DNA of 64,000 nt from Escherichia coli (lineage in GTDB: Bacteria > Pseudomonadota > Gammaproteobacteria > Enterobacterales > Enterobacteriaceae). The position numbers and the translations under genes are program-made. Positions 4,637-64,000 of the stretch are shown here, one piece after another. Location: the NCBI RefSeq assembly GCF_045037415.1, contig NZ_CP173438.1, one strand, 5' to 3'. The stretch's first letter is position 1; each line of letters starts with the position of its first letter. Below the pieces are notes generated by a model, which was given only the letters and a program-made list of their open reading frames with translations, ran no database searches and was not told the DNA's origin.

Positions 4637-4667
4637 CCGGATACGAATGGTTTTGTGTCGTATCCGG
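4637..4667 (+). terminator. Stem-loop downstream of yicI (10-bp stem CCGGATACGA/TCGTATCCGG, 11-nt loop), no T-tract
   Basis: Perfect inverted repeat read directly from the sequence 15 nt after the yicI stop; lacks a U-run so it may be a stability or REP-like element rather than an intrinsic terminator. Confidence 0.3.
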
Positions 4668-4916: not shown

Positions 4917-6470
4917 ATGCAAATGATTACCTCGCGACAAAACAGATTATTACGATTCCTTTTACCTCGAAGGGAATATACGACTATTGTTACGATTGCC
5001 GGCTATTTAAATGTTTCGGAAAAAACCATTCAACGTGATTTACGTTTACTTGAGCAATGGCTGGGACAATGGAGAATAAATGTTGAGAAGCGTGCTGGCG
5101 CGGGTGTGATGTTAAGCGCGGAGAATATTGCTGATTTGCTGCATCTTGATCATTTGTTGGTGGCAGAATGTGAAGAGATTGATGGTGTAATGAATAATGC
5201 CAGGCGCGTTAAAATAGCGTCGCAGTTATTAAGTGAAACACCGAATGAAACGTCGATCAGTAAATTGTCAGAACGCTATTTTATCAGCGGAGCCTCTATT
5301 GTTAATGACCTGAGAGTAATTGAGTCCTGGCTTGCGCCGTTGGGGTTATCGTTGATCCGCAGCCCAAGTGGTACGCATATTGAAGGTAGTGAAGGGCAAG
5401 TCCGACAGGCAATGGCATTACTGATTAACGGCATTATTAACCATAATGAGCCGCAAGGTGTCGTGTATTCACGTCTGGATCCCGGAAGCTATAAAGCATT
5501 AGTCCATTATTTTGGAGAGGAAGAAGTGTTATTTGTCCAGTCATTGTTACTGGATATGGAAAATGAATTAAGTTGGTCTTTGGGAGAACCTTATTACGTT
5601 AACATTTTTACTCATATCCTTATTATGATGTATCGCAACACGCACGGGAATGCGTTATCAAGAGAAGAAGATCAAACCAGGCAATATGATGAAAATATCT
5701 TTAATGTTGCCAGTCAGATGATTCATAAGATAGAACAACGAATTGCACATACATTGCCCGATGATGAAGTCTGGTTTATTTATCAATATATCATTTCATC
5801 AGGTGTGGCGATTGATGGACAAAAAGATGTTAGCATTATTTCACATATGCAGGCCAGCAATGAAGCGCGTCTGATTACCTGGCGTTTAATTACGGTATTC
5901 AGTGACATCGTGGACTGCGATTTTAGTGAAGACAGCGCATTATATGATGGCTTATTGGTGCATATTAAACCGCTGATTAACCGACTAAATTATCGTATTC
6001 ATATCCGTAATCCATTGCTGGAAGATATTAAAGCAGAATTAGCGGATGTCTGGCGGTTGACGCAATATGTGGTGAATCAGGTATTTAAAACCTGGGGTGA
6101 GAATGCGGTGAGCGAGGATGAAGTGGATTACCTGACCGTTCATTTTCAGGCTGCGATGGAACGGCAAATTGCCCGTAAACGCGTATTACTGGTCTGTTCA
6201 ACCGGAATCGGAACTTCGCATCTACTGAAAAGCCGTATTCTGCGAGCATTTCCTGAATGGACGATTGTTGATGTTATTTCAGCAGCGAATTTATCACAGG
6301 TTTTGCCTGACAATATCGAACTGATTATTTCGACCATTAATTTGCCTACAGTCACTATGCCGGTCGCTTATGTTACCGCTTTTTTTAATGATGCCGATAT
6401 TAAGCGGGTCACTGAAATGGTGATTACGGAAAAATTACATCATGCGACGTCTCGGGTCGTTGAAATTTAA
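4917..6470 (+). CDS. PRD-containing, PTS-regulated transcriptional activator (MtlR/LicR-like): N-terminal HTH, PRD region, C-terminal EIIB(Gat)-like domain
   Basis: 517-aa ORF; N-terminal HTH-like segment (TIVTIAGYLNVSEKTIQRDLRLLEQWL); C-terminal RKRVLLVCSTGIGTSHLLKSRI resembles the phosphorylatable Cys loop of galactitol-type EIIB domains found in PRD activators; AT-rich gene heading a PTS operon. Confidence 0.6.
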   Translation: MQMITSRQNRLLRFLLPRREYTTIVTIAGYLNVSEKTIQRDLRLLEQWLGQWRINVEKRAGAGVMLSAENIADLLHLDHLLVAECEEIDGVMNNARRVKIASQLLSETPNETSISKLSERYFISGASIVNDLRVIESWLAPLGLSLIRSPSGTHIEGSEGQVRQAMALLINGIINHNEPQGVVYSRLDPGSYKALVHYFGEEEVLFVQSLLLDMENELSWSLGEPYYVNIFTHILIMMYRNTHGNALSREEDQTRQYDENIFNVASQMIHKIEQRIAHTLPDDEVWFIYQYIISSGVAIDGQKDVSIISHMQASNEARLITWRLITVFSDIVDCDFSEDSALYDGLLVHIKPLINRLNYRIHIRNPLLEDIKAELADVWRLTQYVVNQVFKTWGENAVSEDEVDYLTVHFQAAMERQIARKRVLLVCSTGIGTSHLLKSRILRAFPEWTIVDVISAANLSQVLPDNIELIISTINLPTVTMPVAYVTAFFNDADIKRVTEMVITEKLHHATSRVVEI

Positions 6471-6496
6471 TGTCAGAATTTTATGAGGTATGACGA

Positions 6497-6967
6497 ATGG
6501 ACATAACAAAAATCCTGAATACGAATCGCGTTATTTTAGATATGCAAGCGACGAATAAAGCGGAGGCGATTGAAGAATTAACTAATCTTCTCAAAAAAGA
6601 TGGTGCGATCGATTGTCGGGAAACCTTTATTAAAGATGTCTGGCAGCGCGAAGCGGAAGGCTCGACTGGTTTTGAAAATCATATTGCGATCCCGCATGGT
6701 AAATCTTCAGCTGTGATTAATACTACGCTGGCAATTGGCCGTACCCGCCAGGATATTCCCTGGGAAACGCTGGATGGCAGTAGCGTGCGCTGTATTATTT
6801 TATTTGCGGTACGTCTTGAAGATCAAAATACCACCCATATCCGTTTACTTTCCCAGGTCGCGGGCGCGCTGGCGGATGATGACATCATAGAACAATTGTT
6901 AGTTGAGACGAGTCCGCAAAAAATCATTGATCTCTTTAGTCAGTATGCACAATCCGATGTCTGCTAA
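6497..6967 (+). CDS. PTS EIIA component, fructose/mannitol (type 2) family
   Basis: 156-aa ORF with the EIIA-2 His motif context (NHIAIPHGKS); RBS-spaced 26 nt after the regulator gene. Confidence 0.7.
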   Translation: MDITKILNTNRVILDMQATNKAEAIEELTNLLKKDGAIDCRETFIKDVWQREAEGSTGFENHIAIPHGKSSAVINTTLAIGRTRQDIPWETLDGSSVRCIILFAVRLEDQNTTHIRLLSQVAGALADDDIIEQLLVETSPQKIIDLFSQYAQSDVC

Positions 6968-6984
6968 ATAACAGGGAGTATGTC

Positions 6985-7299
6985 ATGAATATTGTCTGTG
7001 TTGCCGCCTGTACGGCGGGTATTGCTCATACCTATATTGCTCGTGAAAAGTTAATCAAAGGAGCAAAAGCTCTGGGCCATACCATTAAAGTTGAAACCCA
7101 GGGAACCATTGGTACAGAAAATGAATTACAGGCGGCAGATATCTCTGCTGCTGACGTCGTGATTCTTGCTGTAGATGTGAAAATAAAAGGAGAAGAACGC
7201 TTCACCAATAAACGTATTGTGCGAGTAAAGACAGAGATCGTCATTAAGTCGCCCGTTCAATTTCTTGAAAAGGTCGAAAAATCACTGGGAAACAAATGA
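6985..7299 (+). CDS. PTS EIIB component, fructose-type
   Basis: 104-aa ORF; N-terminal active-site Cys loop (NIVCVAACTAGIAHT) typical of fructose-family EIIB (FrwB-like). Confidence 0.7.
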   Translation: MNIVCVAACTAGIAHTYIAREKLIKGAKALGHTIKVETQGTIGTENELQAADISAADVVILAVDVKIKGEERFTNKRIVRVKTEIVIKSPVQFLEKVEKSLGNK

Positions 7300-7323
7300 T
7301 CCTTATACTGGAGGGATCTTAAT

Positions 7324-8415
7324 ATGAAAGAAAATAAAATTACGGTTTCACAGGAAATTAAAAAACATTTATTAACCGGCATCTCGTGGATGATACCCCT
7401 TATTGTGGCCGCCGGGATATGTATTGCGTTGGGGCAAGTTCTTGGCGGTACAGATGTTGGTGAAAAAACAGGAACAATCCCGTGGATGCTTAATCAGATT
7501 GGCGGCTGGGGAATGGGGCTGATTGTGCCGCTGATTAGCGCGGCAATTGCCTATTCTATTGCCGATCGTCCCGGATTTGCCCCGGGCCTGATTGTCGGCT
7601 TTCTCTGTGGGCAAATCCATACCGGATTTATTGGCGGTATGTTGGGTGGTTTCCTGGTGGGCTACACCATTTTGCTACTTAAACGCTATATCCGCCTGCC
7701 GCAGTCGATGCAAGGACTCATGCCAATCATGGTGTTGCCGGTATTAAGCACCATTATCGGTGGGCTGTTAATGATGACGCTGATTGGTAAACCCATCGCC
7801 TGGTTACAAGAAGCACTGATTCATTTGCTCGAGTCGATGCAGGGCGGATCGCGCTTCCTGATGGGGGCCATACTTGGCGCGATGGCAACCTTCGATTTCG
7901 GTGGTCCGGTCAACAAAACCATGTCGCTGTTTTCCGATGGCTTGCTGGTCAGTGGCGTCTACGGACCAGAAGCCGTGAAATTTGTCGGCTCAATCATCCC
8001 TCCGTTTGGCATCACACTTTCGTTCTTACTGACACGCCATAAATACACCCGTGCGGAGCGCGAGGCGCTGAAAGCCGCGTTTCCGATGGGGATCTGCATG
8101 ATTACTGAAGGAGTCATTCCGATCGCCGCGCGTGACCTACTGCGAGTAGTGGGATCTTGTGTGGTGGCATCGGCGGTCGCGGGCGGCTTAATCATGGTGT
8201 GGGGCGTGGAGAGTCCGGTTCCGCATGGCGGCATGTTTGTTGTGCCTCTGTTCACCCATCCTCTGCTGTTTTGCCTGGCGCTGGGTATAGGCACGGTGAT
8301 TTGTGGCGTGATGCTTTCACTCTGGAAGAAACCGGTAACGGAACGCGACGAAGAGTTTGACGAACTGAGCGATCAAAAGCTGAAAGATGAAGAGATCACT
8401 TTCACCCTCGAATAA
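7324..8415 (+). CDS. PTS EIIC permease, fructose-like family
   Basis: 363-aa polytopic membrane ORF, similar in size and hydropathy pattern to FrwC-type IIC; follows the IIA and IIB genes. Confidence 0.7.
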   Translation: MKENKITVSQEIKKHLLTGISWMIPLIVAAGICIALGQVLGGTDVGEKTGTIPWMLNQIGGWGMGLIVPLISAAIAYSIADRPGFAPGLIVGFLCGQIHTGFIGGMLGGFLVGYTILLLKRYIRLPQSMQGLMPIMVLPVLSTIIGGLLMMTLIGKPIAWLQEALIHLLESMQGGSRFLMGAILGAMATFDFGGPVNKTMSLFSDGLLVSGVYGPEAVKFVGSIIPPFGITLSFLLTRHKYTRAEREALKAAFPMGICMITEGVIPIAARDLLRVVGSCVVASAVAGGLIMVWGVESPVPHGGMFVVPLFTHPLLFCLALGIGTVICGVMLSLWKKPVTERDEEFDELSDQKLKDEEITFTLE

Positions 8416-8426
8416 CCGGAGGCCCT

Positions 8427-9278
8427 ATGTTTGCCGATATGAAAAGTATGGTGATGAAAGCCTGGCATGAACATTACGCCTTGCTGGCGATCAACTGTAT
8501 GAATCTGGAAAGTGCTCACGCAGCTATCCGCGTGGCGGAGAAGAATCGCGCTCCGATCATTCTCAATCTCTATCAGGGGCATCTGGCGCATTTTCCTGCA
8601 CCCGTCGCGGCGGCAGTGGTTAAAACGCTCGCGGAATCTGCCTCAGTACCGGTCGCTCTGGCGCTTGATCATGGCAAAAATCCGGACTGTATTCGTCAGG
8701 CGTTTCGTGCTGGTTTCAGCGGATTAATGATTGATGCTTCTGCTTTTCCCCTGGAGGAAAACGTGCGCCAGACCAGGGCGGTGGTGGAACTCGCCGCCAG
8801 CGCGCAGCTCTGCGTGGAAGGCGAACTGGGCCATCTGGCAGATGCGCCGCGTTACGACCAGGCCGCCAATGCAGACCTGATGACGCAACCCACTGATGTG
8901 GAACCGTTTATCGCGCAGACAGGCATTGATCTACTGGCCGTCTCGGTAGGCACGGCGCACGGCATGTACGCGCCTGGCGTTGTACCTGCTATTGATTTTC
9001 AGCGTCTGGCGGAGATTTTCCACTGCTCGAGCGTGCCTCTGGCATTACATGGCGGTAGCGGTACGCCGTTCGATCAGCTCCAGCTCTGTACGACTCTGGG
9101 GGTAGCAAAAATCAACGTGGGGGCGGCCATTTTTGAACGGGGGAAATCCGCGCTCCTGCATACCCTCTGTCACGATATATCCATTGAACTGGTGGACGCG
9201 CTGAAAGCTATGGAACTGGCCTTCGAAGAAGCGATTACACCGTATTTACAGGCGAGCGGCGCTATCGGCAAAGCCTGA
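8427..9278 (+). CDS. Class II ketose-bisphosphate aldolase family protein (paralogue 1, divergent N-terminus)
   Basis: 283-aa ORF retaining class II aldolase metal/catalytic motifs (LALDHG, VEGELG, GTAHG, LHGGSG) but with an N-terminal region diverged from the canonical substrate-binding motif. Confidence 0.6.
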   Translation: MFADMKSMVMKAWHEHYALLAINCMNLESAHAAIRVAEKNRAPIILNLYQGHLAHFPAPVAAAVVKTLAESASVPVALALDHGKNPDCIRQAFRAGFSGLMIDASAFPLEENVRQTRAVVELAASAQLCVEGELGHLADAPRYDQAANADLMTQPTDVEPFIAQTGIDLLAVSVGTAHGMYAPGVVPAIDFQRLAEIFHCSSVPLALHGGSGTPFDQLQLCTTLGVAKINVGAAIFERGKSALLHTLCHDISIELVDALKAMELAFEEAITPYLQASGAIGKA

Positions 9279-9358
9279 TTCATTTTCTGTCATGGCCTTT
9301 ATGCCAGTGCAATAACGCACCGGCAGGGCGGACTACACGCTGAAACTGGAGATTTAAC

Positions 9359-25061: not shown

Positions 25062-25312
25062 GGTTCTCTCCCTAAAAATCTGTCTGGAAGGGTAGCGATT
25101 TGTGCGCATTGTCACGATTGAGATTTTTTAAGGAGAGAATAGATTGATAATTTGTAGTTATGTGAAATTGCTATTTTCTGTAGTAAGAATGCATTTTTCT
25201 GATTTTGTGATAAGTAAAATGCATTAGAAAAAGTATGGAGTAAATAAATATGAGGACGAAACTATATGCGTAGCGCCGCTGTAATTAACAACGGCCTACG
25301 GAGATATGTCGC

Positions 25313-32549: not shown

Positions 32550-34314
<1,765 letters not shown>

Positions 34315-34666
34315 AGTAAATAGCTGACTTATGGATGTGCTGGGGATTCTATGTATTTAGCTGTGGCTTTACCATTACTTTTCCCGTTTTTGACTTAAAT
34401 AGCAATTTACCCGCCAATTCTTGCTGAACATCTATACTTTTTTTGTATTTTTATGCGATTCATTGATTTCTGCAGTACGTGCAGGAAGGAATCGCAGAGC
34501 AACAGTAAAAAGAATATGGTTGCTAATGATTTTATTTGATTGATTTCTTTATTGAAAATCAACAATGTGCTTAAAAATCATTCGGGTCGGATTGCCGCGA
34601 AAGAAGTGATACACTAGCGCGTCAATATCAGTGCGGTATCAGTATTCAGGTAGCTGTTGAGCCTGG

Positions 34667-34678
34667 GGCGGTAGCGTG
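34667..34678 (+). promoter_or_regulatory. ops element (GGCGGTAGCGTG) within the JUMPstart region upstream of the waaQ operon; RfaH recruitment site
   Basis: Exact 12-nt match GGCGGTAGCGTG about 50 nt upstream of the waaQ start, in the 413-bp divergent waaA-waaQ intergenic region. Confidence 0.65.
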
Positions 34679-34727
34679 CTTTTTCTGCTTCACCTTAATC
34701 GGATAATCTCAACAAAAAGAGTTACTT

Positions 34728-35786
34728 GTGGATAAGCCATTTCGAAGAATTTTGCTCATTAAGATGCGTTTTCATGGGGATATGTTATTAACTACTCCCG
34801 TCATTAGTTCGCTGAAAAAAAATTACCCTGACGCAAAAATCGATGTGCTGCTTTATCAGGACACCATCCCGATCCTGTCTGAAAATCCAGAGATTAACGC
34901 GCTCTACGGCATAAAAAATAAAAAAGCAAAAGCCTCAGAAAAAATTGCCAACTTTTTTCATCTCATCAAGGTATTACGTGCCAATAAGTATGACCTTATC
35001 GTTAATCTTACCGATCAATGGATGGTTGCTATACTGGTTCGCTTATTAAATGCCCGTGTGAAAATTTCCCAGGATTATCATCATCGGCAGTCTGCTTTTT
35101 GGCGTAATAGTTTCACTCATTTGGTGCCGTTGCAGGGTGGAAATGTGGTGGAAAGTAACTTATCCGTGCTGACGCCATTGGGACTTGAATCGTTGGTGAA
35201 GCAGACAACCATGAGTTACCCGCCTGCAAACTGGAAACGTATGCGTCGCGAACTTGATCACGCTGGTGTTGGACAAAATTATGTGGTTATCCAACCTACG
35301 GCGCGGCAAATCTTCAAATGCTGGGACAACGCCAAGTTTTCCGCTGTGATTGATGCCTTACATGCTCGTGGTTATGAAGTCGTTCTGACGTCCGGCCCAG
35401 ATAAAGACGATCTGGCCTGCGTCAATGAAATTGCGCAGGGATGCCAGACGCCACCAGTAACGGCGCTGGCCGGAAAGGTGACCTTCCCGGAACTTGGTGC
35501 GTTAATCGATCATGCGCAGCTGTTTATTGGCGTTGATTCCGCACCGGCGCATATTGCCGCTGCAGTTAATACGCCGCTGATATCGCTGTTTGGTGCGACG
35601 GACCATATTTTCTGGCGTCCCTGGTCAAATAACATGATTCAATTCTGGGCGGGAGATTACCGGGAAATGCCAACGCGCGATCAGCGTGACCGAAATGAGA
35701 TGTATCTTTCGGTTATTCCGGCGGCAGATGTCATTGCAGCTGTCGATAAATTACTTCCCTCCTCCACGACAGGTACGTCGTTATGA
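34728..35786 (+). CDS. waaQ: LPS heptosyltransferase III
   Basis: 352-aa ORF, GT9 heptosyltransferase family; first gene of the long core operon. Confidence 0.88.
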   Translation: MDKPFRRILLIKMRFHGDMLLTTPVISSLKKNYPDAKIDVLLYQDTIPILSENPEINALYGIKNKKAKASEKIANFFHLIKVLRANKYDLIVNLTDQWMVAILVRLLNARVKISQDYHHRQSAFWRNSFTHLVPLQGGNVVESNLSVLTPLGLESLVKQTTMSYPPANWKRMRRELDHAGVGQNYVVIQPTARQIFKCWDNAKFSAVIDALHARGYEVVLTSGPDKDDLACVNEIAQGCQTPPVTALAGKVTFPELGALIDHAQLFIGVDSAPAHIAAAVNTPLISLFGATDHIFWRPWSNNMIQFWAGDYREMPTRDQRDRNEMYLSVIPAADVIAAVDKLLPSSTTGTSL

Positions 35787-36907
35787 TCGTTGCTTTTTGT
35801 TTATATAAATATTTTCCCTTTGGCGGTTTGCAGCGCGATTTTATGCGTATTGCTCAGACAGTCGCCGCCCGAGGCCATCATGTTCGGGTTTATACCCAGT
35901 CGTGGGAAGGCGAATGCCCTGATGTATTTGAACTGATCAAAGTGCCGGTTAAATCGCATACCAATCACGGGCGCAATGCGGAATATTTTGCCTGGGTGCA
36001 AAAACATTTACGTGAACACCCCGTCGATAGAGTTGTTGGATTTAATAAAATGCCGGGGCTGGACGTTTATTATGCCGCTGATGTTTGTTATGCCGAGAAA
36101 GTAGCGCAGGAGAAAGGCTTTTTCTATCGCCTGACGTCACGTTATCGCCATTATGCTGCCTTTGAGCGGGCAACCTTCGAACAGGGCAAGCCGACACAGC
36201 TGCTGATGCTGACAGATAAGCAAATCGCCGATTTCCAGAAACATTATCAGACTGAAGCGGAACGTTTTCATATTCTGCCACCGGGGATTTATCCTGATCG
36301 TAAATATAGCCAGCAGCCAGCCAATAGCCGTGAAATCTTCCGTAAGAAGAATGGAATAACCGAACAACAATATTTATTGTTGCAGGTTGGTTCAGACTTC
36401 ACGCGTAAAGGTGTCGATCGTTCCATTGAAGCACTTGCTTCGTTACCGGATTCGCTGCGCCACAACACATTGCTATATGTTGTTGGGCAGGATAAACCGC
36501 GAAAATTTGAGGCGCTGGCAGAAAAACGCGGCGTGCGCAGTAATGTTCACTTCTTCTCGGGGCGCAACGATGTCTCGGAATTAATGGCGGCGGCGGATTT
36601 ATTACTTCATCCTGCCTACCAGGAAGCCGCGGGAATTGTACTGCTGGAAGCGATAACTGCAGGATTACCGGTACTAACAACAGCCGTTTGTGGCTATGCG
36701 CATTATATTGTTGACGCCAATTGCGGCGAGGCTATTGCTGAGCCATTCCGCCAGGAAACATTGAATGAGATTTTACGCAAAGCGTTAACGCAATCTTCAT
36801 TGCGCCAGGCCTGGGCGGAAAATGCGCGACATTATGCTGATACACAAGATTTATACAGTCTGCCAGAGAAAGCGGCGGACATCATAACGGGTGGTCTGGA
36901 TGGTTGA
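35783..36907 (+). CDS. waaG: LPS core glucosyltransferase I
   Basis: 374-aa ORF, GT4 family; start overlaps the waaQ stop (ATGA). Confidence 0.9.
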
Positions 36908-37697
36908 ACTTAAAGAGCCGTTTGCCACGTTATGGCGCGGTAAAGATCCTTTTGAGGAAGTTAAAACCTTGCAGGGTGAGGTATTTCGTGAACTGGAAAC
37001 TCGCCGCACTCTGCGCTTTGAAATGGCGGGCAAAAGCTATTTTCTCAAATGGCATCGCGGCACGACCCTGAAAGAGATAATCAAAAATTTACTCTCATTG
37101 CGGATGCCAGTATTAGGCGCAGACCGCGAATGGAATGCGATTCATCGACTGCGGGATGTCGGCGTTGATACTATGTATGGGGTGGCATTCGGCGAAAAAG
37201 GCATTAATCCGCTGACCAGAACCTCGTTTATTATTACCGAAGATCTGACACCAACCATCAGTCTGGAAGATTACTGTGCTGACTGGGCGACCAACCCACC
37301 AGATGTTCGCGTGAAGCGTATGCTTATTAAGCGTGTCGCGACGATGGTGCGCGATATGCATGCTGCGGGCATTAACCACCGTGACTGTTATATCTGTCAT
37401 TTCCTGCTGCACTTGCCTTTTTCCGGTAAGGAAGAGGAGTTAAAAATTTCAGTAATTGACCTGCACCGGGCGCAGATACGTGCAAAAGTACCGCGTCGTT
37501 GGCGGGATAAAGATTTGATTGGTTTGTATTTTTCATCAATGAATATTGGGCTGACGCAGAGAGATATCTGGCGATTTATGAAGGTTTATTTTGGGATGCC
37601 TTTACGTAAGATATTATCTTTTGAACGGAATTTATTGAACATGGCAAGTGTTAAGGCCGAGCATATTAAAGAGCGAACACAACGCAAAGGATTATAA
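36900..37697 (+). CDS. waaP: LPS core heptose(I) kinase
   Basis: From [21 protein letters not shown] gives 265 aa; kinase-like fold. Confidence 0.9.
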
Positions 37698-37733
37698 AAA
37701 TATTAATCAGTATGTACTGGAACTAACTTCATT

Positions 37734-38669
37734 ATGACTATTTATTTTATAAACTGGGTTGCAGATTATGAATTAAAAATGATCCAGTACTTGAAAAAAA
37801 AGCACAAGATAAAAAATATAACAACACCAAAAAAATACAACTGGGTTAATAAGAAAATTTCGAAATTAGGGATGGATAATGCATGGTTGGGACGATTATT
37901 TATCAAACATCACCTAAATGCTGTAAAAAAGGATGATATCATTATATTTAATGACAGTGTCATTAATAAAAGTATTAACAAGCAAATATTAAAAAATATT
38001 AATTGTCATAAAGTATTACTTCTAAGAAATACTGTCAGTGAAAATTTTATTTTTGATAACGCTAATTATTTTGATATTATCTATGATTTTGAGCATAGAT
38101 TTATAGGGAATGAAAAGATCAAGGCAATAGAACAATTTTTTCCTATAGGAATGGATGAAATTAGAAATTATAGTTTATCTGACAAAAATAACAGTCAGCC
38201 AATATGTTTTTTTCTTGGTCGTGATAAAGGACGTCTTCAAATAATTAATGAATTAGCCGATAGATTAACAACACTAGGATGTAAGTTAGATTTTAATGTT
38301 GTCAAAGATAAAACATCATCTCCGACTTCAAAGTATTTGATTGAAAAACAAATATCGTATGAAGAGAATATTAGAAGAACATTAAATGCTAATATAATTG
38401 TTGATATAACTAAAGAAAACCAATCTGGCTGGACTCTTCGTATACTTGAGGCACTATTTTTCAATAAAAAATTAATTACTAATAATATAAATGTACTTGG
38501 TTCGGAAATCTATAGTGAGTCTCGCTTTTTTATAATAGGTCATGATGATTGGGATAAGTTAGAGTATTTTATTAATTCATCTGTTAAACCAATGGATTAT
38601 GATAGTTTATATAAATTCAGCCCTGATAAAATGATGTCAACAATTGTTTATGATTTTATAGAAAAATAA
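37734..38669 (+). CDS. waaS: LPS core biosynthesis protein WaaS (K-12-type core)
   Basis: 311-aa ORF in a markedly AT-rich gene at the position waaS occupies in the K-12-type core cluster. Confidence 0.8.
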
Positions 38670-38712
38670 AACCGTTAAAACAGTGAGTTTTACTCAATTA
38701 ATGAGAGTTTCA

Positions 38713-39792
38713 ATGAAAATAGCATTTATCGGCGAAGCTGTTTCTGGATTTGGCGGCATGGAAACGGTCATTCGTGATGTTATTACTACCTTCAGGCAAC
38801 AACATATCTATAGTGAAATGTTTTTCTTTTGTCGTAATGATAAAATGGATAAGGGATGGCTGGAAGGTATTAAGTACTCGTGTTCATTTTCCAATATTCG
38901 CTTAGGTTTTTTGCGTCGGGCGAAACATATTCATGCTTTAAGCAAATGGCTTCAAGATTATCAGCCAGATGTTGTTATTTGTATTGACGTTATCTCGTGT
39001 TTGTATGCGGCCAAAGCACGTAAAAAATCAGGAATTGATGTGCCAGTATTTTCATGGCCGCATTTTTCTTTAGATCACAAAAAACATGCTGAATATATCA
39101 CCTGTGCAGACTATCATTTAGCCATCAGCTCTGGCATTAAACAGCAAATGATTAATCGGGGTGTACCAGAATCGACGATAAATGTTATTTTTAATCCAGT
39201 CGAAGCTAAAGACACAGTCATTCCTGGGCCTGAGGAAGGTGAAACGGCAACGTTCATTTATGTTGGGCGTATGAAATTCGAGGGCCAGAAGAGGGTTAAA
39301 GACCTGCTTGATGGTTTATCACAAGCGCAAGGTGACTGGAAACTCCATGTACTGGGTGATGGTTCTGATTTTGAAAAATGCCAGGCATATGGTAGAGAAT
39401 TGAAGATTGATAATCGAATTGTCTGGCATGGTTGGCAAAAACATCCATGGGAGGTAGTGCGTCAGGATATTAAGAAAGTCAGTGCATTGTTATTAACCTC
39501 ATCTTTTGAAGGTTTTCCAATGACCTTACTTGAATCGATGTCATGGGGGATTCCGTGTATCAGTGCCGATTGTGTCTCCGGTCCTGGTGACATTATTCAA
39601 CCTGATGTCAATGGCCATTTGTATCAACCGGGAGATATTGCTGGTTTTGTTACTCTTCTAAATAAATATATAGCAGGTGAAATTCATATCGAACATGAAA
39701 AAATTCCTGCGTCGATCGATAAGTTTTATCAATCTAAGTATTATGATAGATTACATAATATAATTATTTCTGCTATTTCCCGGAGGAAATAA
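38713..39792 (+). CDS. waaB: LPS core alpha-1,6-galactosyltransferase
   Basis: From MKIAFIGEAVSGFGGMETV gives 359 aa, GT4 family. Confidence 0.85.
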   Translation: MKIAFIGEAVSGFGGMETVIRDVITTFRQQHIYSEMFFFCRNDKMDKGWLEGIKYSCSFSNIRLGFLRRAKHIHALSKWLQDYQPDVVICIDVISCLYAAKARKKSGIDVPVFSWPHFSLDHKKHAEYITCADYHLAISSGIKQQMINRGVPESTINVIFNPVEAKDTVIPGPEEGETATFIYVGRMKFEGQKRVKDLLDGLSQAQGDWKLHVLGDGSDFEKCQAYGRELKIDNRIVWHGWQKHPWEVVRQDIKKVSALLLTSSFEGFPMTLLESMSWGIPCISADCVSGPGDIIQPDVNGHLYQPGDIAGFVTLLNKYIAGEIHIEHEKIPASIDKFYQSKYYDRLHNIIISAISRRK

Positions 39793-40811
39793 TGCAGCAG
39801 GTATTTTTCCAGGAAACTGAGTATCTAAATTCAGTTATTGATTATAATCATAAAGTAGAAACAGAAAATCTTTGTCTGGACATCGCTTATGGAACTGACA
39901 AAAACTTTCTATTTGGTTGCGGAATTTCGATTGCTTCAATATTAAAGTATAATGAAGGAAGTCGGTTGTGTTTTCACATTTTTACTGATTATTTTGGTGA
40001 TAATGATCGTAAGTATTTTGATGCCCTGGCGTTACAGTATAAAACCAGAATTAAAATATATCTGATTAATGGTGATCGACTGCGCTCATTGCCTAGCACA
40101 AAGAACTGGACTCATGCAATATATTTTCGTTTTGTTATTGCTGATTACTTTATTAGTAAGGTGGCTAAAGTCCTTTATCTGGATGCAGATATCATTTGTC
40201 AGGGGACTATTGAGCCACTAATTAAATTCTCATTTCCTGACGATAAAGTCGCAATGGTTGTTACAGAAGGGCAAGCTGACTGGTGGGAAAAACGCGCCCA
40301 TTCGTTAGGTGTTGCGGGAATTTCTAAAGGTTACTTTAACTCCGGTTTTTTATTGATTAATACTGCCAAATGGGCAGCTCAGCAGGTTTCTGCACGAGCC
40401 ATTGCAATGCTAAATGAGCCAGAAGTAATCAAAAAAATAACACATCCTGATCAGGATGTATTAAATATGTTGCTGGCAGATAAACTTATTTTCGCTGATA
40501 TTAAATATAACACCCAGTTTAGCTTAAATTATCAACTAAAAGAAAGCTTTATAAACCCAGTAACCAACAATACTATTTTTATCCATTATATCGGGCCAAC
40601 CAAGCCCTGGCATGATTGGGCCTGGGATTATCCTGTATCACAAGCCTTTATGGAGGCAAAAAATGCTTCGCCATGGAAGAATACAGCGTTGCTGAAACCG
40701 AACAATAGCAATCAATTAAGATATAGCGCAAAACATATGCTTAAAAAACATAGATATCTAAAAGGATTTAGCAACTATCTTTTTTATTTTATTGAAAAGA
40801 TAAAGCATTAA
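39792..40811 (+). CDS. waaO: LPS core alpha-1,3-glucosyltransferase (GT8)
   Basis: 339-aa ORF, GT8 family (rfaI); start overlaps the waaB stop. Confidence 0.85.
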   Translation: MQQVFFQETEYLNSVIDYNHKVETENLCLDIAYGTDKNFLFGCGISIASILKYNEGSRLCFHIFTDYFGDNDRKYFDALALQYKTRIKIYLINGDRLRSLPSTKNWTHAIYFRFVIADYFISKVAKVLYLDADIICQGTIEPLIKFSFPDDKVAMVVTEGQADWWEKRAHSLGVAGISKGYFNSGFLLINTAKWAAQQVSARAIAMLNEPEVIKKITHPDQDVLNMLLADKLIFADIKYNTQFSLNYQLKESFINPVTNNTIFIHYIGPTKPWHDWAWDYPVSQAFMEAKNASPWKNTALLKPNNSNQLRYSAKHMLKKHRYLKGFSNYLFYFIEKIKH

Positions 40812-40850
40812 AACTGGGAAACAATAAAGTAATGATATAAGGGTAGCATT

Positions 40851-41867
40851 GTGGACTCATTTCCTGCCATAGAGATAGATAAAGTTAAAGCCTGGGATTT
40901 TCGGCTGGCTAATATAAATACTTCTGAATGTTTAAATGTTGCCTATGGTGTCGATGCTAATTATCTTGATGGTGTAGGTGTTTCCATTACATCAATTGTC
41001 CTAAATAATCGACATATTAATCTTGATTTTTATATTATTGCTGATGTTTATAATGATGCTTTTTTCCAAAAAGTTGCAAAGCTTGCAGAGCAATACCAAT
41101 TAAGAATCACATTATATAGAATTAACACTGATAAGCTCCAGTGCTTGCCTTGTACACAGGTCTGGTCAAGAGCAATGTACTTCCGTTTATTTGCATTTCA
41201 ATTATTGGGTTTAACACTTGATCGTTTGCTTTATCTTGATGCAGATGTTGTTTGTAAAGGCGATATTAGCCAACTATTGCATCTGGATTTAAACGGCGCG
41301 GTTGCTGCTGTTGTTAAAGATGTTGACCCAATGCAGGAAAAGGCGGCATCCAGGTTGTCTGATCCAGAATTACTCGGGCAGTACTTTAATTCCGGTGTCG
41401 TTTATTTAGATTTAAAAAAATGGGCTAACGCAAAACTAACAGAAAAAGCGTTGTCTATTCTTATGAGTAAAGATAATGTGTATAAATACCCTGATCAAGA
41501 TGTTATGAATGTCTTACTGAAAGGGATGACAATATTTTTGCCTCGTGGATATAATACAATTTATACAATTAAAAGTGAATTAAAAGACAAAACACATCAA
41601 AACTATAAAAAGCTGATTATAGAAAATACTCTTCTTATTCATTATACAGGTGCAACTAAACCGTGGCACAAATGGGCAATTTATCCATCGACAAAATACT
41701 ATAAAATAGCTTTAGACAATTCCCCCTGGAAAGATGACTCTCCACGAGATGCGAAATCAATTATTGAATTCAAAAAAAGATATAAACATCTTTTAGTGCA
41801 ACATCACTATATCTCAGGAATTATAGCAGGAGTCTGTTATCTTTGCCGAAAATATTACCCTAAATAA
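40851..41867 (+). CDS. waaJ: LPS core alpha-1,2-glucosyltransferase (GT8; rfaJ, also called waaR in K-12)
   Basis: 338-aa ORF, GT8 paralogue of the preceding gene. Confidence 0.85.
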   Translation: MDSFPAIEIDKVKAWDFRLANINTSECLNVAYGVDANYLDGVGVSITSIVLNNRHINLDFYIIADVYNDAFFQKVAKLAEQYQLRITLYRINTDKLQCLPCTQVWSRAMYFRLFAFQLLGLTLDRLLYLDADVVCKGDISQLLHLDLNGAVAAVVKDVDPMQEKAASRLSDPELLGQYFNSGVVYLDLKKWANAKLTEKALSILMSKDNVYKYPDQDVMNVLLKGMTIFLPRGYNTIYTIKSELKDKTHQNYKKLIIENTLLIHYTGATKPWHKWAIYPSTKYYKIALDNSPWKDDSPRDAKSIIEFKKRYKHLLVQHHYISGIIAGVCYLCRKYYPK

Positions 41868-41884
41868 CATTTAACTGGTTTGTT

Positions 41885-42583
41885 ATGATTCAGAAGAGCA
41901 AGATCAAAGACTTGGTTGTTTTTACCGATGAAGAGAATTCAAAGTACCTCAATGTATTAAATGACTTCTTGTCTTATAATATAAATATCATCAAGGTTTT
42001 TCGTTCTATTGATGATACAAAAGTTATGCTTATTGATACCGATTACGGTAAATTGATTCTTAAGGTTTTTTCTCCGAAAGTTAAGCGTAACGAACGTTTC
42101 TTTAAGTCTCTGTTAAAAGGTGATTATTACGAACGCCTTTTTGTGCAAACTCAAAAAGTACGAAATGAAGGGTTAAATACACTCAATGATTTTTATTTAT
42201 TGGCTGAACGGAAAACCTTACGATTTGTCCATACTTATATCATGATCATCGAGTATATTGATGGTATAGAGTTATGTGATATGCCCGATATTGATGATTC
42301 GCTAAAAAATAAAATTCAACAATCAATTAATGCCTTGCATAAACATGGCATGGTTTCTGGCGACCCTCATCGTGGTAACTTCATTATAAAAAATGGTGAG
42401 GTCCGAATTATTGATCTCTCTGGAAAACGTGCTTCAGCGCAGCGTAAAGCGAAAGATCGCATTGACTTAGAGCGTCATTACGGTATTAAAAATGAGATTA
42501 AAGATCTAGGCTATTATCTTTTAGTATATCGTAAAAAAATGCGCAATTTTATGCGGCGTTTGAAAGGGAAACCAGCTCGCTAA
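41885..42583 (+). CDS. waaY: LPS core heptose(II) kinase
   Basis: 232-aa ORF, kinase-like (HKHGMVSGDPHRGNFI). Confidence 0.85.
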   Translation: MIQKSKIKDLVVFTDEENSKYLNVLNDFLSYNINIIKVFRSIDDTKVMLIDTDYGKLILKVFSPKVKRNERFFKSLLKGDYYERLFVQTQKVRNEGLNTLNDFYLLAERKTLRFVHTYIMIIEYIDGIELCDMPDIDDSLKNKIQQSINALHKHGMVSGDPHRGNFIIKNGEVRIIDLSGKRASAQRKAKDRIDLERHYGIKNEIKDLGYYLLVYRKKMRNFMRRLKGKPAR

Positions 42584-42652
42584 AAAAATCCCACAATTAC
42601 ATGTCTTCACCAGGACAGTTTTAAGCGGAGTTATTTATTTCACAGGTTTATC

Positions 42653-43504
42653 ATGAAGAATATTAGATATATTGACAAAAAAGATGTTGAAAACCTGATT
42701 GAAAATAAAACATCTGATGATGTTATTATTTTTCTTTCGGGCCCTACATCGCAAAAAACACCTTTGTCAGTATTACGAACAAAGGATATTATTGCTGTCA
42801 ATGGTTCTGTGCAATATCTGTTAAGTCATAATATCGTTCCTTTTATATATGTACTTACAGATGTCCGCTTTTTACATCAGCGTCGTGATGATTTTTATAA
42901 ATTTAGCCAGAGAAGCCGTTATACCATAGTAAACGTTGACGTTTATGAACATGCTTCCAAAGAAGATAAACTTTATATCCTCCAGAACTGCCTCGTATTA
43001 CGGTCCTTTTATCGCCGGGAAAAAGGTGGTTTTATAAAGAAGATTAAATTTAATATATTGAGTCAGATTCACAAAGAACTGCTGATCTCTGTACCGTTGT
43101 CTAAAAAAGGTCGTCTGGTTGGATTTTGCAAGGACATTAGTTTTGGTTATTGTTCATGCCATACTATTGCCTTTGCTGCAATTCAAATAGCATATTCACT
43201 TAAGTATGCACGGATTATTTGTTCTGGTCTTGATTTAACGGGTAACTGCTCTCGTTTCTATGACGAAAATAATAATCCCATGCCCTCGGAATTGAGTAAG
43301 GATTTATTCAAAATCTTGCCATTTTTCCGTTTTATGCGTGATAATGTAGAAGATATTAATATCTATAATTTATCAGATGATACAGCTATTTCTTACGATG
43401 TAATTCCATTTATTAAATTTCAAGATATCAGTAGAGAAGAATCAAAAGATAAGACAAGAAAAAAAATGCAATATAGAACTTCAACTGATTCTTATGCTAA
43501 TTAA
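42653..43504 (+). CDS. waaZ: LPS core biosynthesis protein WaaZ (KdoIII addition)
   Basis: 283-aa ORF, AT-rich, K-12 core position. Confidence 0.8.
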   Translation: MKNIRYIDKKDVENLIENKTSDDVIIFLSGPTSQKTPLSVLRTKDIIAVNGSVQYLLSHNIVPFIYVLTDVRFLHQRRDDFYKFSQRSRYTIVNVDVYEHASKEDKLYILQNCLVLRSFYRREKGGFIKKIKFNILSQIHKELLISVPLSKKGRLVGFCKDISFGYCSCHTIAFAAIQIAYSLKYARIICSGLDLTGNCSRFYDENNNPMPSELSKDLFKILPFFRFMRDNVEDINIYNLSDDTAISYDVIPFIKFQDISREESKDKTRKKMQYRTSTDSYAN

Positions 43505-43536
43505 TCATCCTGAAACTAAAGTAATATGGTATAAAA

Positions 43537-44610
43537 ATGCGTTTAGGAACTTTTCACAAAAAGAAAAGATTTTATATAAACAAAATAAAAATTAATTTCC
43601 TTTCTTTTTTATTTCGTAAAAAAATAAATAATCAAATTACAGAACCAGCGCAAGTTAATTCATGTCTTATTATTCATGATAATAATAAGCTCGGTGATCT
43701 AATTGTATTAAGTTCGATTTATCGTGAACTTTATAGTAAAGGGGTTAAAATAACCATTCTTACAAATAGTAAGGGTGGGGCGTTTCTCTCTAACAATAAA
43801 AATATATTTGAGTTCTGTATTAAAGAATCAACCGGTTTCCTTAAAATGCTTACTCTATGTAAGCATCTGCGGGATTTGCAGTTCGATATTGTATTAGACC
43901 CCTTTGAAACCATGCCCTCATTTAAGCATAGTTTAATATTATCAAGTTTAAAAGATTCTTACATTCTGGGTTTTGATCAATGGTATAAACGTTACTATTC
44001 ATTTTACCATCCCCACGATGAATGTTTAAAAGAACATATGAGTACACGAGCAACAGAAATACTGAAGCATATTTATGGTGAGGGTGAATTCTCCACCGAC
44101 TACGACTTGCATTTACCAGTAGATGTTGAAGATAAAATAAAAGAATTTATTGGAGATACAAGAATAGTCATTATTAACCCATTAGGTGCAAAAAAAATAT
44201 GCCGACTTACGTTTGAGCAAATAAAAGTTATATATCAAGAAATGAAACTACACTTTGAAAATTATCGGGTGATATTTACCGGGTTACCGCAAGATTTATT
44301 GACAATACCAATACCTGAAATCGAAACACTACCATTTAATGAGTTTATTTATACCGTTGCGTTGACCAAGTATAGTGATTTTGTCATTTCTGTTGATACA
44401 GCTCTTGTTCATATCGCTGCGGCTTATCATAAACCAACGCTTGCATTTTATCCTAATTCACGTACTCCGGAATATCCCTCACATTTAATTTGGTCCCCAA
44501 ATAATCATAAATCAATACAAATAGTATCCCCAACATTTACGGTGAAAGATATCGATACTGAAACTTTAACTGATTCAGTAAAGAGATTAAGTTGTATAGA
44601 TAAGAAGTGA
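43537..44610 (+). CDS. waaU: LPS core heptosyltransferase IV (rfaK)
   Basis: 357-aa ORF, GT9-like; last gene of the operon. Confidence 0.8.
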   Translation: MRLGTFHKKKRFYINKIKINFLSFLFRKKINNQITEPAQVNSCLIIHDNNKLGDLIVLSSIYRELYSKGVKITILTNSKGGAFLSNNKNIFEFCIKESTGFLKMLTLCKHLRDLQFDIVLDPFETMPSFKHSLILSSLKDSYILGFDQWYKRYYSFYHPHDECLKEHMSTRATEILKHIYGEGEFSTDYDLHLPVDVEDKIKEFIGDTRIVIINPLGAKKICRLTFEQIKVIYQEMKLHFENYRVIFTGLPQDLLTIPIPEIETLPFNEFIYTVALTKYSDFVISVDTALVHIAAAYHKPTLAFYPNSRTPEYPSHLIWSPNNHKSIQIVSPTFTVKDIDTETLTDSVKRLSCIDKK

Positions 44611-44635
44611 GTTTTAACTCACTTCTTAAACTTGT

Positions 44636-45901
44636 TTATTCTTGATTAATAGTATTGTTACGATTATTAATAACGAGTAAGAGGACTATAGCGGATATAA
44701 CGATAATTGGAATGCTGCGTGCCCATATGATCACATCACTGAGTCCAATCCCCACAATGCCAAGCGTTAATATCAACAAACCCAAAGCTCGTCTTTTATA
44801 TGCTGTATAAAACAGTGAAAAATAGAGGAAAAGGATGGAAATAATTCCCATCAGACCTTTCAGTGACCCTGCTTCAATTATCTCATTATGTAGATGTACG
44901 TTAGAAAACTCCAATGCCCCTCTTAGCCTGTTGTGTTCTGCAACTAACAAATTCATATTTTCAGCGCGTGACTCTGCTGATCTAAATGAAAAAGGTGACT
45001 TTATGAATATATTTAAACCAATTTCGTACATTGCCAGTCTTGCACCTAGGGAAGTCACGCTATTAGCATTGGTATAACTGTTTAAATCATTTAATGCTTC
45101 ATTATAGCGATTCTGTATTGGTTTATTAAATATAATTACTATGCTAGCTAATATAGCAATTAGTAGAACAATAGAGGAAGTGAATTTCTTGGGTGATTTA
45201 TTATAATAAGCTATTAATGCAGCAACACAAATTATAGGGAACAGGAGTAGGGTTGCTCTGGTTTGTGTTAGCGCCAGAACATAAAGTACCGCGCAACTAT
45301 TTAATAAAAATAAAAAAGGATGGTTTTTCTTAGTATAAAGAATCGCAACGCCACTAACTATCCCTATTAGCATAGTTGAATATGCTGCTCCTGTTGCCGT
45401 TCCTACACCAAAAGAAATGCGGTCATTTTCATGAATGCTATTAATATACATTGCATATCCAGCAATTAGAAATGACAGAGAATATAAAGTGTATAATACA
45501 CTCTCTTTTTTTGATTTTAGCTGGCTAGTTAGTGTCAAGAAAACAATAAAAGAACCAAATATAAAAATTTTGGCAGTATTTAAATAACTATGGTAAGTAG
45601 CACGAAATGGCGAATTATCTATTTTAAACGCAGAATACCAAATTAAATCAAGTAAGCCTATTAAAAATATAGAAAGGGGAAGAATAAGGTTTTTTATATT
45701 ATAATTTTCTTGTCTGCCACGTAAAATTAGTGCCACTAAGCAAACTATAGCAGTGATATTATATATTTTTATGCTGAAAGTATTATCAACGAATGCAATT
45801 ATCATTGAAAAAAAACATAATATATAAGTTATTATCTCTAAAATCATTGATGATTTAAGAGAGTAAGGTTTCAATGAATGAAGTTTAAAGGATGTTAGCA
45901 T
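44636..45901 (-). CDS. waaL: O-antigen ligase
   Basis: 421-aa highly hydrophobic ORF, AT-rich, convergent with waaU; start could be slightly downstream (K-12 WaaL is about 419 aa by recollection). Confidence 0.85.
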   Translation of the reverse strand: MLTSFKLHSLKPYSLKSSMILEIITYILCFFSMIIAFVDNTFSIKIYNITAIVCLVALILRGRQENYNIKNLILPLSIFLIGLLDLIWYSAFKIDNSPFRATYHSYLNTAKIFIFGSFIVFLTLTSQLKSKKESVLYTLYSLSFLIAGYAMYINSIHENDRISFGVGTATGAAYSTMLIGIVSGVAILYTKKNHPFLFLLNSCAVLYVLALTQTRATLLLFPIICVAALIAYYNKSPKKFTSSIVLLIAILASIVIIFNKPIQNRYNEALNDLNSYTNANSVTSLGARLAMYEIGLNIFIKSPFSFRSAESRAENMNLLVAEHNRLRGALEFSNVHLHNEIIEAGSLKGLMGIISILFLYFSLFYTAYKRRALGLLILTLGIVGIGLSDVIIWARSIPIIVISAIVLLLVINNRNNTINQE

Positions 45902-45910
45902 GTTTTACCT

Positions 45911-60411: not shown

Positions 60412-60458
60412 ACTGCCCCCTTAGTGCGGGGGCAGGATAGCAGATATTCGTCTAACCC

Positions 60459-61649
60459 TTAAGCTGCATTCCCTTTCGCCATCGGAGCCAATGCCGCCGG
60501 CAACTCTTTACCCAGCCCCTGCACCAGCGAATCTTGCGTAATTTCGCTAATCGATTTCGCGCCAGTCAGCGTCATTGCCACTTTCATCTCTTTTTCGATC
60601 AGATTTAGCAGGTTAGCTACACCCGCCTGGCCCGCTGTTGCCAGCGCATACAGGAAAGCACGACCCAGCAGTACGGTGTCGGCACCGAGCGCAATCATAC
60701 GCACGACATCAAGCCCGTTACGTATTCCGCTATCTGCCAGAATGGCGATATCACCTTTCACGGCATCTGCAATAGCAGGCAGTGCACGGGCAGAAGAGAG
60801 CACACCGTCCAGCTGGCGGCCACCGTGGTTAGAAACCACAATTCCATCAGCACCAAAACGTACTGCATCGCGCGCATCTTCTGGGTCGAGGATCCCTTTG
60901 ATCACCATCGGGCCATCCCAGAAATCGCGGATCCACTCAAGGTCTTTCCATGAGATGGACGGATCGAAGTTATTCCCCAGCCAGCCGATGTAATCTTCCA
61001 GTCCGGTCGGTTTGCCGAGGTAAGCCGAGATATTACCTAAATCATGCGGACGACCGTTCAGGCCCACATCCCACGCCCATTGCGGATGCGTCACCGCCTG
61101 CAAATAGCGGCGCATTGCCGCGTTCGGGCCGCTCATCCCAGAATGCGCATCACGATAACGCGCTCCCGGTGTCGGCATATCCACGGTGAAAACCAGCGTC
61201 GAACAACCCGCGGCTTTTGCTCGCTCCAGTGCGTTACGCATAAAGCCGCGATCGCGCAGCACATAAAGCTGGAACCACATCGGACGTTTGATAGCTGGAG
61301 CGACTTCTTCAATCGGGCAAACGGAAACCGTCGAGAGAGTAAACGGAATGCCATGCGCATCCGCGGCTTTGGCAGCCTGAACTTCGCCGCGTCGCGCATA
61401 CATGCCACACAAACCTACCGGACCTAGCGCCACCGGCATCGACAATTTCTCATTAAACAGCGTCGTTTCCAGGCTTAAGTCAGACATGTTTTTCAGAATA
61501 CGCTGGCGCAGCGCCACTTCTGACAAATCTTCCACGTTGCGGCGTAGGGTGTATTCAGAATATGCCCCCCCATCCATATAGTGAAACAGGAACGGCGGCA
61601 GAATGCGTTGCGCTGCGGCGCGATAATCGCTGGCTGCGGAAATAATCAT
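60459..61649 (-). CDS. lldD: L-lactate dehydrogenase (FMN-dependent)
   Basis: 396-aa [37 protein letters not shown]. Confidence 0.95.
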
Positions 61650-62422: not shown

Positions 62423-64000
62423 TAAGGAATCATCCACGTTAAGACATAGGCCTGAAGCGTGGTGATCACGCCCACCATACAGGTGAAGATCAGGCTGTGT
62501 TTGACAGTAAAGCGGAACAAATCAGACTCTTTGCCCACCAGGCCTACCGCCGCACAGGCGATAGCGATAGATTGCGGAGAGATCATTTTGCCGGTGACAC
62601 CACCGGTGGTGTTGGCAGCAACCAGCAACAGGTCAGAAACGCCAATTTGTTGTGCGGCGGTAGCCTGCAAAGCGGCAAACAAAGCATTAGATGACGTATC
62701 CGACCCGGTCAGGAATACCCCAAGCCAGCCGAGGAACGGCGAGAAGAAGGTGAATGCATGACCGGTGTGCGCCAGTGCCAGCGCCAGTGTTGATGACAAA
62801 CCGGAATAGTTCGAGATAAAGGCGAACGCCAGCACCATGCCGATGGAGTAGATAGGCAGAGCCAGTTCTTTCAGCGTGCTGCCGAAGGTGCTGATAGCGT
62901 CAGATGGTTTCATCTTCAGCCAGACAATCGAGAGCAGGGCAGCAAACAGAATGGCGGTACCGGTGGCAGAGAACCAGTCGAACTTAAACACGGCGGCATA
63001 CGCTGTCGCTTCGCTGACCACTGGCGGCATACGGGCAACCAGTTTATCGAGGTACGGCACCGGAATGTTGATCACCCACTCATACAGCGCACCGCCTGAA
63101 GTGAACAGGGCTTTAAACGGCGGGATACTCCACAGTGTTACGGTGGCGGTCAGGAACAGGAACGGTGTCCAGGCGCGCAGCACCTGACCTGCCGTGTAAC
63201 CTGTGTGAGCCAGCGTCATATCAACCTGTGACGCCCCTAAGTCACCGAAGCGGAATACGCGCACGGGTTGCCAGCGTTTGAGGAACAGTGTCAGACAGAG
63301 CAGCGATACCAGCGAAGAGATAATGTCTGGCAGTTCCGGCCCAATAAAGTTAGAGCTGAGGTATTGAGCGATGGCAAACGACCCGCCCGCAACCACGACC
63401 GCAGGCCAGGTTTCTTTGATACCGCGCCAGCCGTCCATAATCGCCATGATCCAGAACAGCACGATAATGGTCATAAACGGCAGCTGACGCCCCACCATCT
63501 GACCAATCTCAAAGCTGTCGATGCCTGTTACCTGCCCGGCGACCAGAATCGGAATACCCATCGCACCAAATGCCACTGGCGCGGTGTTAACAATCAGGCA
63601 CAGCCCGGCGGCGTACAGCGGTTTAAAGCCCAGGCCGACCAGCAATGCGGCGGTAATTGCTACCGGTGCGCCAAAGCCTGCGGCTCCTTCAAGGAAAGCG
63701 CCGAAACAGAAACCGACGATCAGCATTTGCAGGCGCTGGTCAGGGGTTATCGAAAGAATAGACGAGCGGATGATGTCAAACTGCCCGGTTTTCACCGAGA
63801 TCTTATAGACGAACACCGCTGCAATAATGATCCACGCGATGGGCCACAACCCGTAGAAGAAGCCATAAACCACCGAGGCCAGCGCGTTAGCGACCGGCAT
63901 TTTATAGAACAGCAAAGCCACGGCAAGGGCGATTGCCACCGTCCATGAGGCGGCGACGTATCCTTTCAGTTTGAGCTTAATCAGCGCAAAGAAGAAAAAC
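62422..64000 (-). CDS. lldP: L-lactate permease, C-terminal ~525 codons; 5' end lies beyond the right edge of the window
   Basis: ORF open to the window end; C-terminus ...[11 protein letters not shown] matches LldP; full length is about 551 aa, so about 26 codons are missing. Confidence 0.9.

Follow-up and report, generated by a model that had tools for sequence, protein, structure and literature searches.

The DNA analysed here is a stretch of 64,000 nucleotides from Escherichia coli (contig NZ_CP173438.1), referred to below as the window, and the subject is an AT-rich block at 37734-45901 that carries genes for the outer core of lipopolysaccharide (LPS). We consider it very likely that this block is an intact, working K-12-type outer-core cassette of the E. 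coli lineage of sequence type complex 131 (STc131, phylogroup B2). The list of open reading frames (ORFs) contained eight uninterrupted ORFs in the block, seven on the + strand (37734-44610) and one on the - strand (44636-45901). The order following waaP was waaS-waaB-waaO-waaJ(waaR)-waaY-waaZ-waaU on the + strand with waaL convergent, as in the K-12 core type, and it was supported by a colinear full-length alignment with MG1655 and by the identical RefSeq annotation of ST131 (sequence type 131) genomes. The colinearity of the window with MG1655 extended from dut through tdh. Each gene of the block was a full-length, gap-free orthologue of its MG1655 counterpart, with identities of 91.6-97.8% in nucleotides (nt) and 93.0-97.8% in amino acids (aa). 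The ORF lengths were equal to the K-12 gene lengths, except that WaaL was two residues longer at its C-terminus. All eight ORFs were found exactly where an initial annotation of this DNA had placed them, and all were intact.

The enzyme roles of these genes were assigned from orthology to the K-12 enzymes and from the literature. The first gene, waaS (37734-38669), is specific to the K-12 type and encodes a glycosyltransferase of the WaaS/CpsH family; it was 93.6% (nt) and 94.5% (aa) identical to K-12 and scored 184 bits against NF053598, for which the cut-off is 60. The gene for the α-1,6-galactosyltransferase, waaB (38713-39792, with an alternative start at 38683), showed 91.6% nt and 93.0% aa identity to K-12. 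Identities to K-12 were 97.2% nt and 96.8% aa for waaO (39792-40811), which adds the second glucose (GlcII), and the WaaO protein was 85.5% identical to that of R2 and 51-56% identical to those of R1 and R3. For waaJ, also named waaR (40851-41867), the α-1,2-glucosyltransferase gene whose product adds GlcIII, the values were 96.8% nt and 95.9% aa. The heptose-II kinase gene waaY (41885-42583) and the Kdo III transferase gene waaZ (42653-43504) were 97.1% nt and 97.8% aa, and 96.1% nt and 95.4% aa identical to K-12, respectively. Four of these proteins scored above the curated cut-offs of NCBIfam equivalog models, namely WaaB (NF007396, 606.6 bits), WaaO (576.5 bits), WaaY (NF007684, 398.1 bits) and WaaZ (NF007333, 550.2 bits). 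The last gene on the + strand, waaU (43537-44610), is specific to the K-12 type and encodes heptosyltransferase IV of family GT9, which makes the residue that accepts the O antigen; it was 95.8% (nt) and 94.7% (aa, over 357 aa) identical to K-12. On the - strand, waaL (44636-45901) encodes an O-antigen ligase of the K-12 type with 421 aa, and its identities to K-12 were 97.8% nt and 97.6% aa.

For the core type, the proteins were compared by blastp with those of an R2 locus (NDM_12_14482, L003), an R1 locus (23CRST044, L006) and one R3 locus. WaaS had no match in any of the three loci, and WaaU was matched there solely by distant GT9 paralogues. WaaL was 29.6% identical to the R1 WaaL and had no blastp match to the WaaL of R2 or R3. 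In an in-silico PCR, nine published typing primers (LPSTyper Table 2, PMC13293308) were used, of which the K-12 pair defines a waaY-waaU amplicon. The K12-R site was found at 42443 (+) and the K12-F site at 43883 (-), giving a product of 1441 bp compared to the published 1,442. For the R1, R2, R3 and R4 primers, R4-F and R1R4-R included, the window had no site at three or fewer mismatches. The R4 type, which is typed by waaX with the waaW primer pair, was excluded only on the grounds that these two primers had no site and that megablast against 3892 genomes gave no match, the protein comparison covering R1, R2 and R3. The K-12 core type proposed by the initial annotation was therefore supported by the orthology of the eight genes, by the specificity of WaaS, WaaU and WaaL and by the match of the K-12 primer pair only. 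The markers on which it had based the type held for waaS and waaU. As unique markers, waaZ and a convergent waaL did not hold, because both occur in R2 and the waaL of R3 is convergent as well.

The block was 100% identical to many chromosomes of O25b:H4-ST131 strains. The window agreed with the chromosome of ST131 strain 5506 (CP103508.1) at every base of 1-39537 and of 39528-48901, the two segments that flank a copy of the insertion sequence IS1 in strain 5506. Among 5426 complete genomes, 1031 carried at least 80% of the block, and it was present at 99% identity or more in 548 genomes and at about 95.8% in about 475. The identity of 100% to ST131 genomes shows that the strain is not K-12, in agreement with the initial annotation.

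Although the cassette is of the K-12 type, the resemblance to K-12 does not extend to the whole locus, since its waaQ, waaG and waaP genes (waaQGP) belong to another allele class. The initial annotation had treated these genes as ordinary flank. Instead, they were the least K-12-like genes of the region. On the nucleotide level, waaQ (34728-35786, +; heptosyltransferase III) was 70%, waaG (35783-36907, +; glucosyltransferase I) 80% and waaP (36900-37697, +; heptose-I kinase, 474.8 bits against the NCBIfam RfaP equivalog) 81% identical to K-12. WaaQ was 73% identical in amino acids to K-12, compared to 99.4% for an R1 strain and 99.1% for an R3 strain, and WaaG was 90.6% identical to K-12 and 100% identical to the R1 strain. 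Across the 5426 complete genomes, waaQGP fell into two deep classes. The class of the window (class I) was found at 95% identity or more in about 4470 genomes, including O157:H7 (R3) and R1 strains, and the other class (class II) in 950 genomes at about 77%, including the K-12 laboratory strains. The split was examined over 34400-37480 by comparing three loci (L001, L003 and L004) with three others (L005, L006 and L007). The divergence between the two classes has a sharp limit at about 34400, and they were about 76% identical in nucleotides over the waaA-waaQ spacer, the waaQ and waaG genes and the 5' portion of waaP; the divergent stretch spans the region of the K-12 small RNA (sRNA) rirA, and the core of the JUMPstart element is conserved. 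The class found in the window, which occurs with R1 and R3, does not affect membership in the K-12 outer-core type, because waaQGP act on the inner core and do not define the type.

The identity profile of the locus was a mosaic. Over 34400-37479 the window was 99.35% identical to the R1-type genome vs 75.8% to K-12, over 37734-45901 it was 95.8% identical to K-12 and had no alignment to R1 or R3, and over waaC-hldD it was 99.1% identical to the R1-type genome vs 97.6% to K-12. Breakpoints were read from mismatch profiles, per 40 nt on the left and per 50 nt on the right. Along waaP, the comparison with the R1 strain gave 0-1 mismatches per 40 nt until 37479 and then 2, 7 and 5, whereas that with K-12 gave 5-13 until 37479 and then 5, 4 and 0. 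The left crossover was hence placed inside waaP, at about 37480-37520. WaaP is chimeric, since the switch falls within its gene: the 5' ~580 nt are of the majority class linked to R1 and R3, and the 3' ~180-220 nt are of the K-12/R2 class. In all the loci compared, the 3' end of waaP followed the core type. The right crossover lies at the 3' end of waaC (45911-46870, -; heptosyltransferase I, 99.7% aa identity to K-12), at about 45911-45950. From about 45950 the window could again be aligned with the R1 strain, and each 50-nt interval as far as 46550 showed 0 mismatches. A related arrangement was observed in strain HS-01 (NZ_CP172817.1), in which the flanks and the outer-core cassette are identical to K-12, waaQGP is of class I (R3-like) and the crossover lies near 37600. 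HS-01 is thus another mosaic of this kind that arose independently, and joins between class I waaQGP and a K-12 cassette have arisen more than once.

The GC content of the block was 33.0%, compared to 47.0% for waaQGP, 52% for waaC-waaF-hldD and 51.6% for the remaining window. In windowed GC it fell from 0.48-0.54 in the flanks to 0.28-0.39 in the block, which is the lowest-GC 8.2-kb stretch of the whole window, and the GC content at third codon positions was 0.21-0.32 for the genes of the block and 0.45-0.62 for the flanking genes. The block is accordingly much more AT-rich than the flanking waaQGP and waaCF-hldD genes, as initially annotated. The same annotation had taken this composition as a signature of horizontal exchange; the low GC content was confirmed, but it is no evidence of exchange in the ST131 lineage, because the outer cores of all core types compared (R1, R2, R3 and K-12) have 33-35% GC. 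For the same reason, AT-richness was rejected as a sign of recent transfer. We infer an exchange from the discordance of flanks and cassette in the mosaic profile.

We propose that, in an ancestor of STc131, homologous recombination replaced the outer-core cassette. The segment of the K-12 type begins within waaP at about 37500 and ends at about 45950 in the 3' end of waaC, and the flanks and most of waaQGP match R1-type relatives. Several points weigh against parts of this reading. The cassette differs from K-12 by 4.2% (343 mismatches in 8168 nt), compared to 1.5% and 2.4% for the conserved flanks. A search of the complete genomes found no closer donor allele outside the group at 99% identity or more. 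The K-12 typing primers carry one mismatch each on the window. Finally, the direction of exchange, in which either the STc131 ancestor gained the K-12 type or other B2 strains gained R1, is drawn from parsimony in the literature, and the direction and the timing are offered as the probable course of events.

The strongest alternative is that no replacement occurred in the ST131 line, so that the K-12 cassette and the majority waaQGP would be old and vertically inherited, and the derived state would be the R1 locus found in other B2 strains. The cassette allele is indeed old and distinct, the junction could be ancient because the 3' end of waaP tracks the core type in all loci compared, and HS-01 provides an independent locus that combines class I waaQGP with a K-12 cassette. 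However, within B2 the K-12 type is confined to STc131 and most other B2 strains are R1 (PMC8715443), and the flanks of the window are 99.1-99.4% identical to the R1-type genome right to the junctions. Since the K-12 type within B2 is found in STc131 only and the flanks are R1-like up to the junctions, parsimony favours a single gain in STc131, and we regard vertical inheritance of the whole locus as unlikely.

A recent transfer of the cassette from a K-12-like strain of phylogroup A into ST131 appears more improbable still. The gene content and order are the same as in K-12, and K-12-type loci are common in genomes outside B2, with about 475 genomes at about 95.8%. Nevertheless, the divergence of the cassette exceeds that of the flanks. 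In addition, the waaS-waaB end (37734-39200) was 96.6% identical to a third allele, that of DETEC-S792, vs 93.7% to K-12, and no genome in the sampled ranking had a cassette identity between about 96% and 99%. Because of this divergence, the closeness to DETEC-S792 and the gap in the ranking, we do not regard the cassette as recently imported from a strain resembling K-12.

The R2 type, or a K-12/R2 hybrid with waaK and/or an R2-like waaL and a core capped with N-acetylglucosamine (GlcNAc), can be dismissed almost with certainty. The R2 locus shares waaB, waaO, waaJ, waaY and waaZ at 84-96% nt and the convergent waaL, and K-12/R2 hybrids, described in 2025, exist (PMC13293308). The initial annotation had named R2, which lacks waaS, as an example of a type whose assignment would refute its reading. 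In our R2 locus, a family GT8 gene occupied the position of waaS, the GlcNAc transferase gene waaK that of waaU, and the waaL was unrelated. The window had waaS and waaU in these positions, it contained no orthologue of WaaK and no similarity to the R2 WaaL, and no R2 primer had a site. The K-12 assignment withstood this comparison, and the identity as R2 or a hybrid was rejected.

The way in which the cassette would be expressed and used can be outlined from the locus. A JUMPstart element lies in the leader of the waaQ operon at 34640-34678 (+; Rfam RF01707, 55.2 bits vs a gathering score of 35), with an exact match to the ops sequence GGCGGTAGCGTG at 34667-34678. The ops sequence is the loading site of RfaH, which keeps RNA polymerase going through long AT-rich operons. 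Transcription would start upstream of waaQ, and RfaH recruited at JUMPstart/ops would carry it by antitermination through the long AT-rich operon. A second exact ops match, GGCGGTAGCCTG at 62656-62667 (+), lies antisense in lldP and is most likely due to chance (0.11 expected per window). Scans for sigma-70 promoters and terminators gave counts in the window that were not above those of shuffled sequence, and none of their hits were used except a hairpin with a 12-bp stem at 44601-44628, between the convergent stop codons of waaU and waaL. It was found by pattern scan and is a candidate two-way terminator. The encoded enzymes are predicted to build a Glc-Glc-Glc backbone by WaaG, WaaO and WaaJ(R), to which WaaB would add a galactose (Gal) side branch. 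WaaU would add the fourth heptose (HepIV), where the K-12-type ligase WaaL would attach the O antigen, O25b in ST131, and WaaP, WaaY, WaaQ, WaaS and WaaZ would modify the inner core. The predicted core chemistry (a Glc3 backbone, a Gal branch and HepIV on GlcIII) agrees, indirectly, with the LPS patterns of mutants of ST131 strain EC958 (PMC3789825). In that study the waaL, waaK (waaU in our nomenclature), waaJ, waaI (waaO) and waaY mutants had lipid A-core only, the waaB and waaP mutants retained the O-antigen ladder with an abnormal core, and most of the waa mutants were serum-sensitive.

These mutants also bear on the idea that the AT-rich block has no function and is merely a remnant, either silent or in decay. 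A GC content of 33% is typical of foreign DNA silenced by H-NS, and IS1 has inserted into the block in other ST131 genomes. However, the eight ORFs of the window are intact, the block is at least 99% identical across 548 genomes, the antitermination site is present, and EC958 mutants of block genes lose O-antigen attachment and serum resistance (PMC3789825), so that we give this idea virtually no weight.

The window itself carried no IS1, unlike several complete ST131 genomes, where IS1 lies inside an otherwise 100% identical cassette at varied sites and in varied genes. The sites, all within 36900-44610, were in waaB (L002), waaJ (L012), waaZ (L013), the waaY-waaZ spacer and waaU (both L011) and waaP (H26), and the one in waaB corresponds to 39528-39537 of the window. 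At least 14 of the 25 best matches carried an extra piece of about 777 bp. A waaB insertion shared by clonal inheritance in ST131 was considered and rejected, as the exact junction was found in one genome and three others had IS1 in different genes. The insertions are independent of each other and should truncate or alter the core.

The genes on both sides of the locus were conserved. On the left, waaA (33037-34314, -), the Kdo transferase gene, is divergent from the waaQ operon, was 98.7% (nt) and 100% (aa) identical to MG1655 and is annotated as waaA in strain 5506. On the right, the inner-core genes waaF and hldD (46874-48862, -) were 98.4% and 96.1% identical to K-12 in nucleotides.

Outside the block, the differences from K-12 that the initial annotation had listed at selC, yicI-yicH, dinD and htrL were all real. 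The gene selC for the tRNA-Sec lies at 526-620 (-), and the adjoining 1-523 is non-K-12 DNA encoding a protein of the RhuM family; an island has inserted at selC, and the window, which starts inside it, contains only its edge. Between yicI and yicH, an insertion of 7.25 kb (4646-11899) that is absent from K-12 encodes a BglG-family antiterminator, fructose-family phosphotransferase system (PTS) components IIA, IIB and IIC, two aldolases, a ROK-family protein (kinase) and a D-lyxose/D-mannose isomerase, and its GC content is about 40% near 5000-6500. In place of dinD (1160 bp in K-12) there are 77 bp at 25236-25312, and in place of htrL/yibB (1283 bp in K-12) 61 bp at 48911-48971. The R1-type genome has dinD and lacks htrL, and an O157 genome has htrL and an integrase at the position of dinD. 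At 60445-60459, the window has 15 bp where the lldD-trmL spacer of K-12 has about 165 bp; the missing piece is probably a repetitive extragenic element.

The K-12 core type of ST131 has been known since 2012 (Szijarto 2012; Phan 2013; Leclercq 2021; LPSTyper 2025). It was attributed to ST131 by Szijarto et al. (2012, FEMS Microbiol Lett 332:131), as cited in PMC5823992, and the outer-core genes of EC958 were reported to resemble those of MG1655 (PMC3789825). All B2 strains with a K-12 core belonged to STc131 and most other B2 strains were R1 (Leclercq 2021, PMC8715443), and the K-12 type was strongly associated with ST131 (LPSTyper 2025, PMC13293308). The core type sets the residue to which the O antigen is attached, and it also influences serum resistance, phage receptors and the recognition by DC-SIGN and by antibodies. 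Within B2, a K-12 core is an unusual feature that is diagnostic of the pandemic ST131 clone, and the link is established and used in typing and vaccine work. The window adds nothing new to this link, whereas the breakpoints and the allele divergence bear on how ST131 obtained its core. The limited literature examined, which did not cover Szijarto 2012 itself, contained no account of the breakpoints, the chimeric waaP or the age of the allele. These three are the additions to known work and represent finer detail only. Tentatively, the three-part mosaic may be undescribed at such resolution, together with the chimeric heptose-I kinase (~195 N-terminal residues linked to R1/R3 and ~70 C-terminal residues linked to K-12/R2), a separate cassette lineage 4.2% from K-12 without a sampled donor, and a possible hot spot at which IS1 truncates the core, for instance when phages or serum exert selection.

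Compared to the known loci, the closest are those of the ST131 reference strains EC958 and 5506, which are published as K-12 core type and were 100% identical to the window in nucleotides over 34734-48901, except for the IS1 of strain 5506, with the same annotation. From waaS to waaL, the MG1655 locus (waaQGPSBOJYZU with a convergent waaL) agrees with the window in the genes present, their order and orientation and, apart from the two additional residues of WaaL in the window, their lengths, and its JUMPstart leader, waaC-waaF-hldD operon and waaA are arranged as in the window. It differs in waaQ, waaG and the 5' part of waaP, which are of the other deep class (70-81% nt), in the 4.2% divergence of the cassette and in htrL, which lies beside hldD and is absent from the window. 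K-12 is rough, while in ST131 the O25b antigen is attached to the core (PMC3789825). The R2 locus shares waaB-O-J-Y-Z, the convergent waaL and the low GC content with the window, with about 87% nt identity over the shared genes, and differs by its GT8 gene, waaK and unrelated WaaL. In the R1 locus of 23CRST044, the flanks, waaQ, waaG and the 5' part of waaP were 99.1-99.4% identical to the window. Its outer core, however, consists of waaO-T-Y-W-V with waaL on the operon strand, its homologous proteins were 30-53% identical to those of the window, and it has no orthologues of WaaS, WaaB, WaaZ and WaaU.

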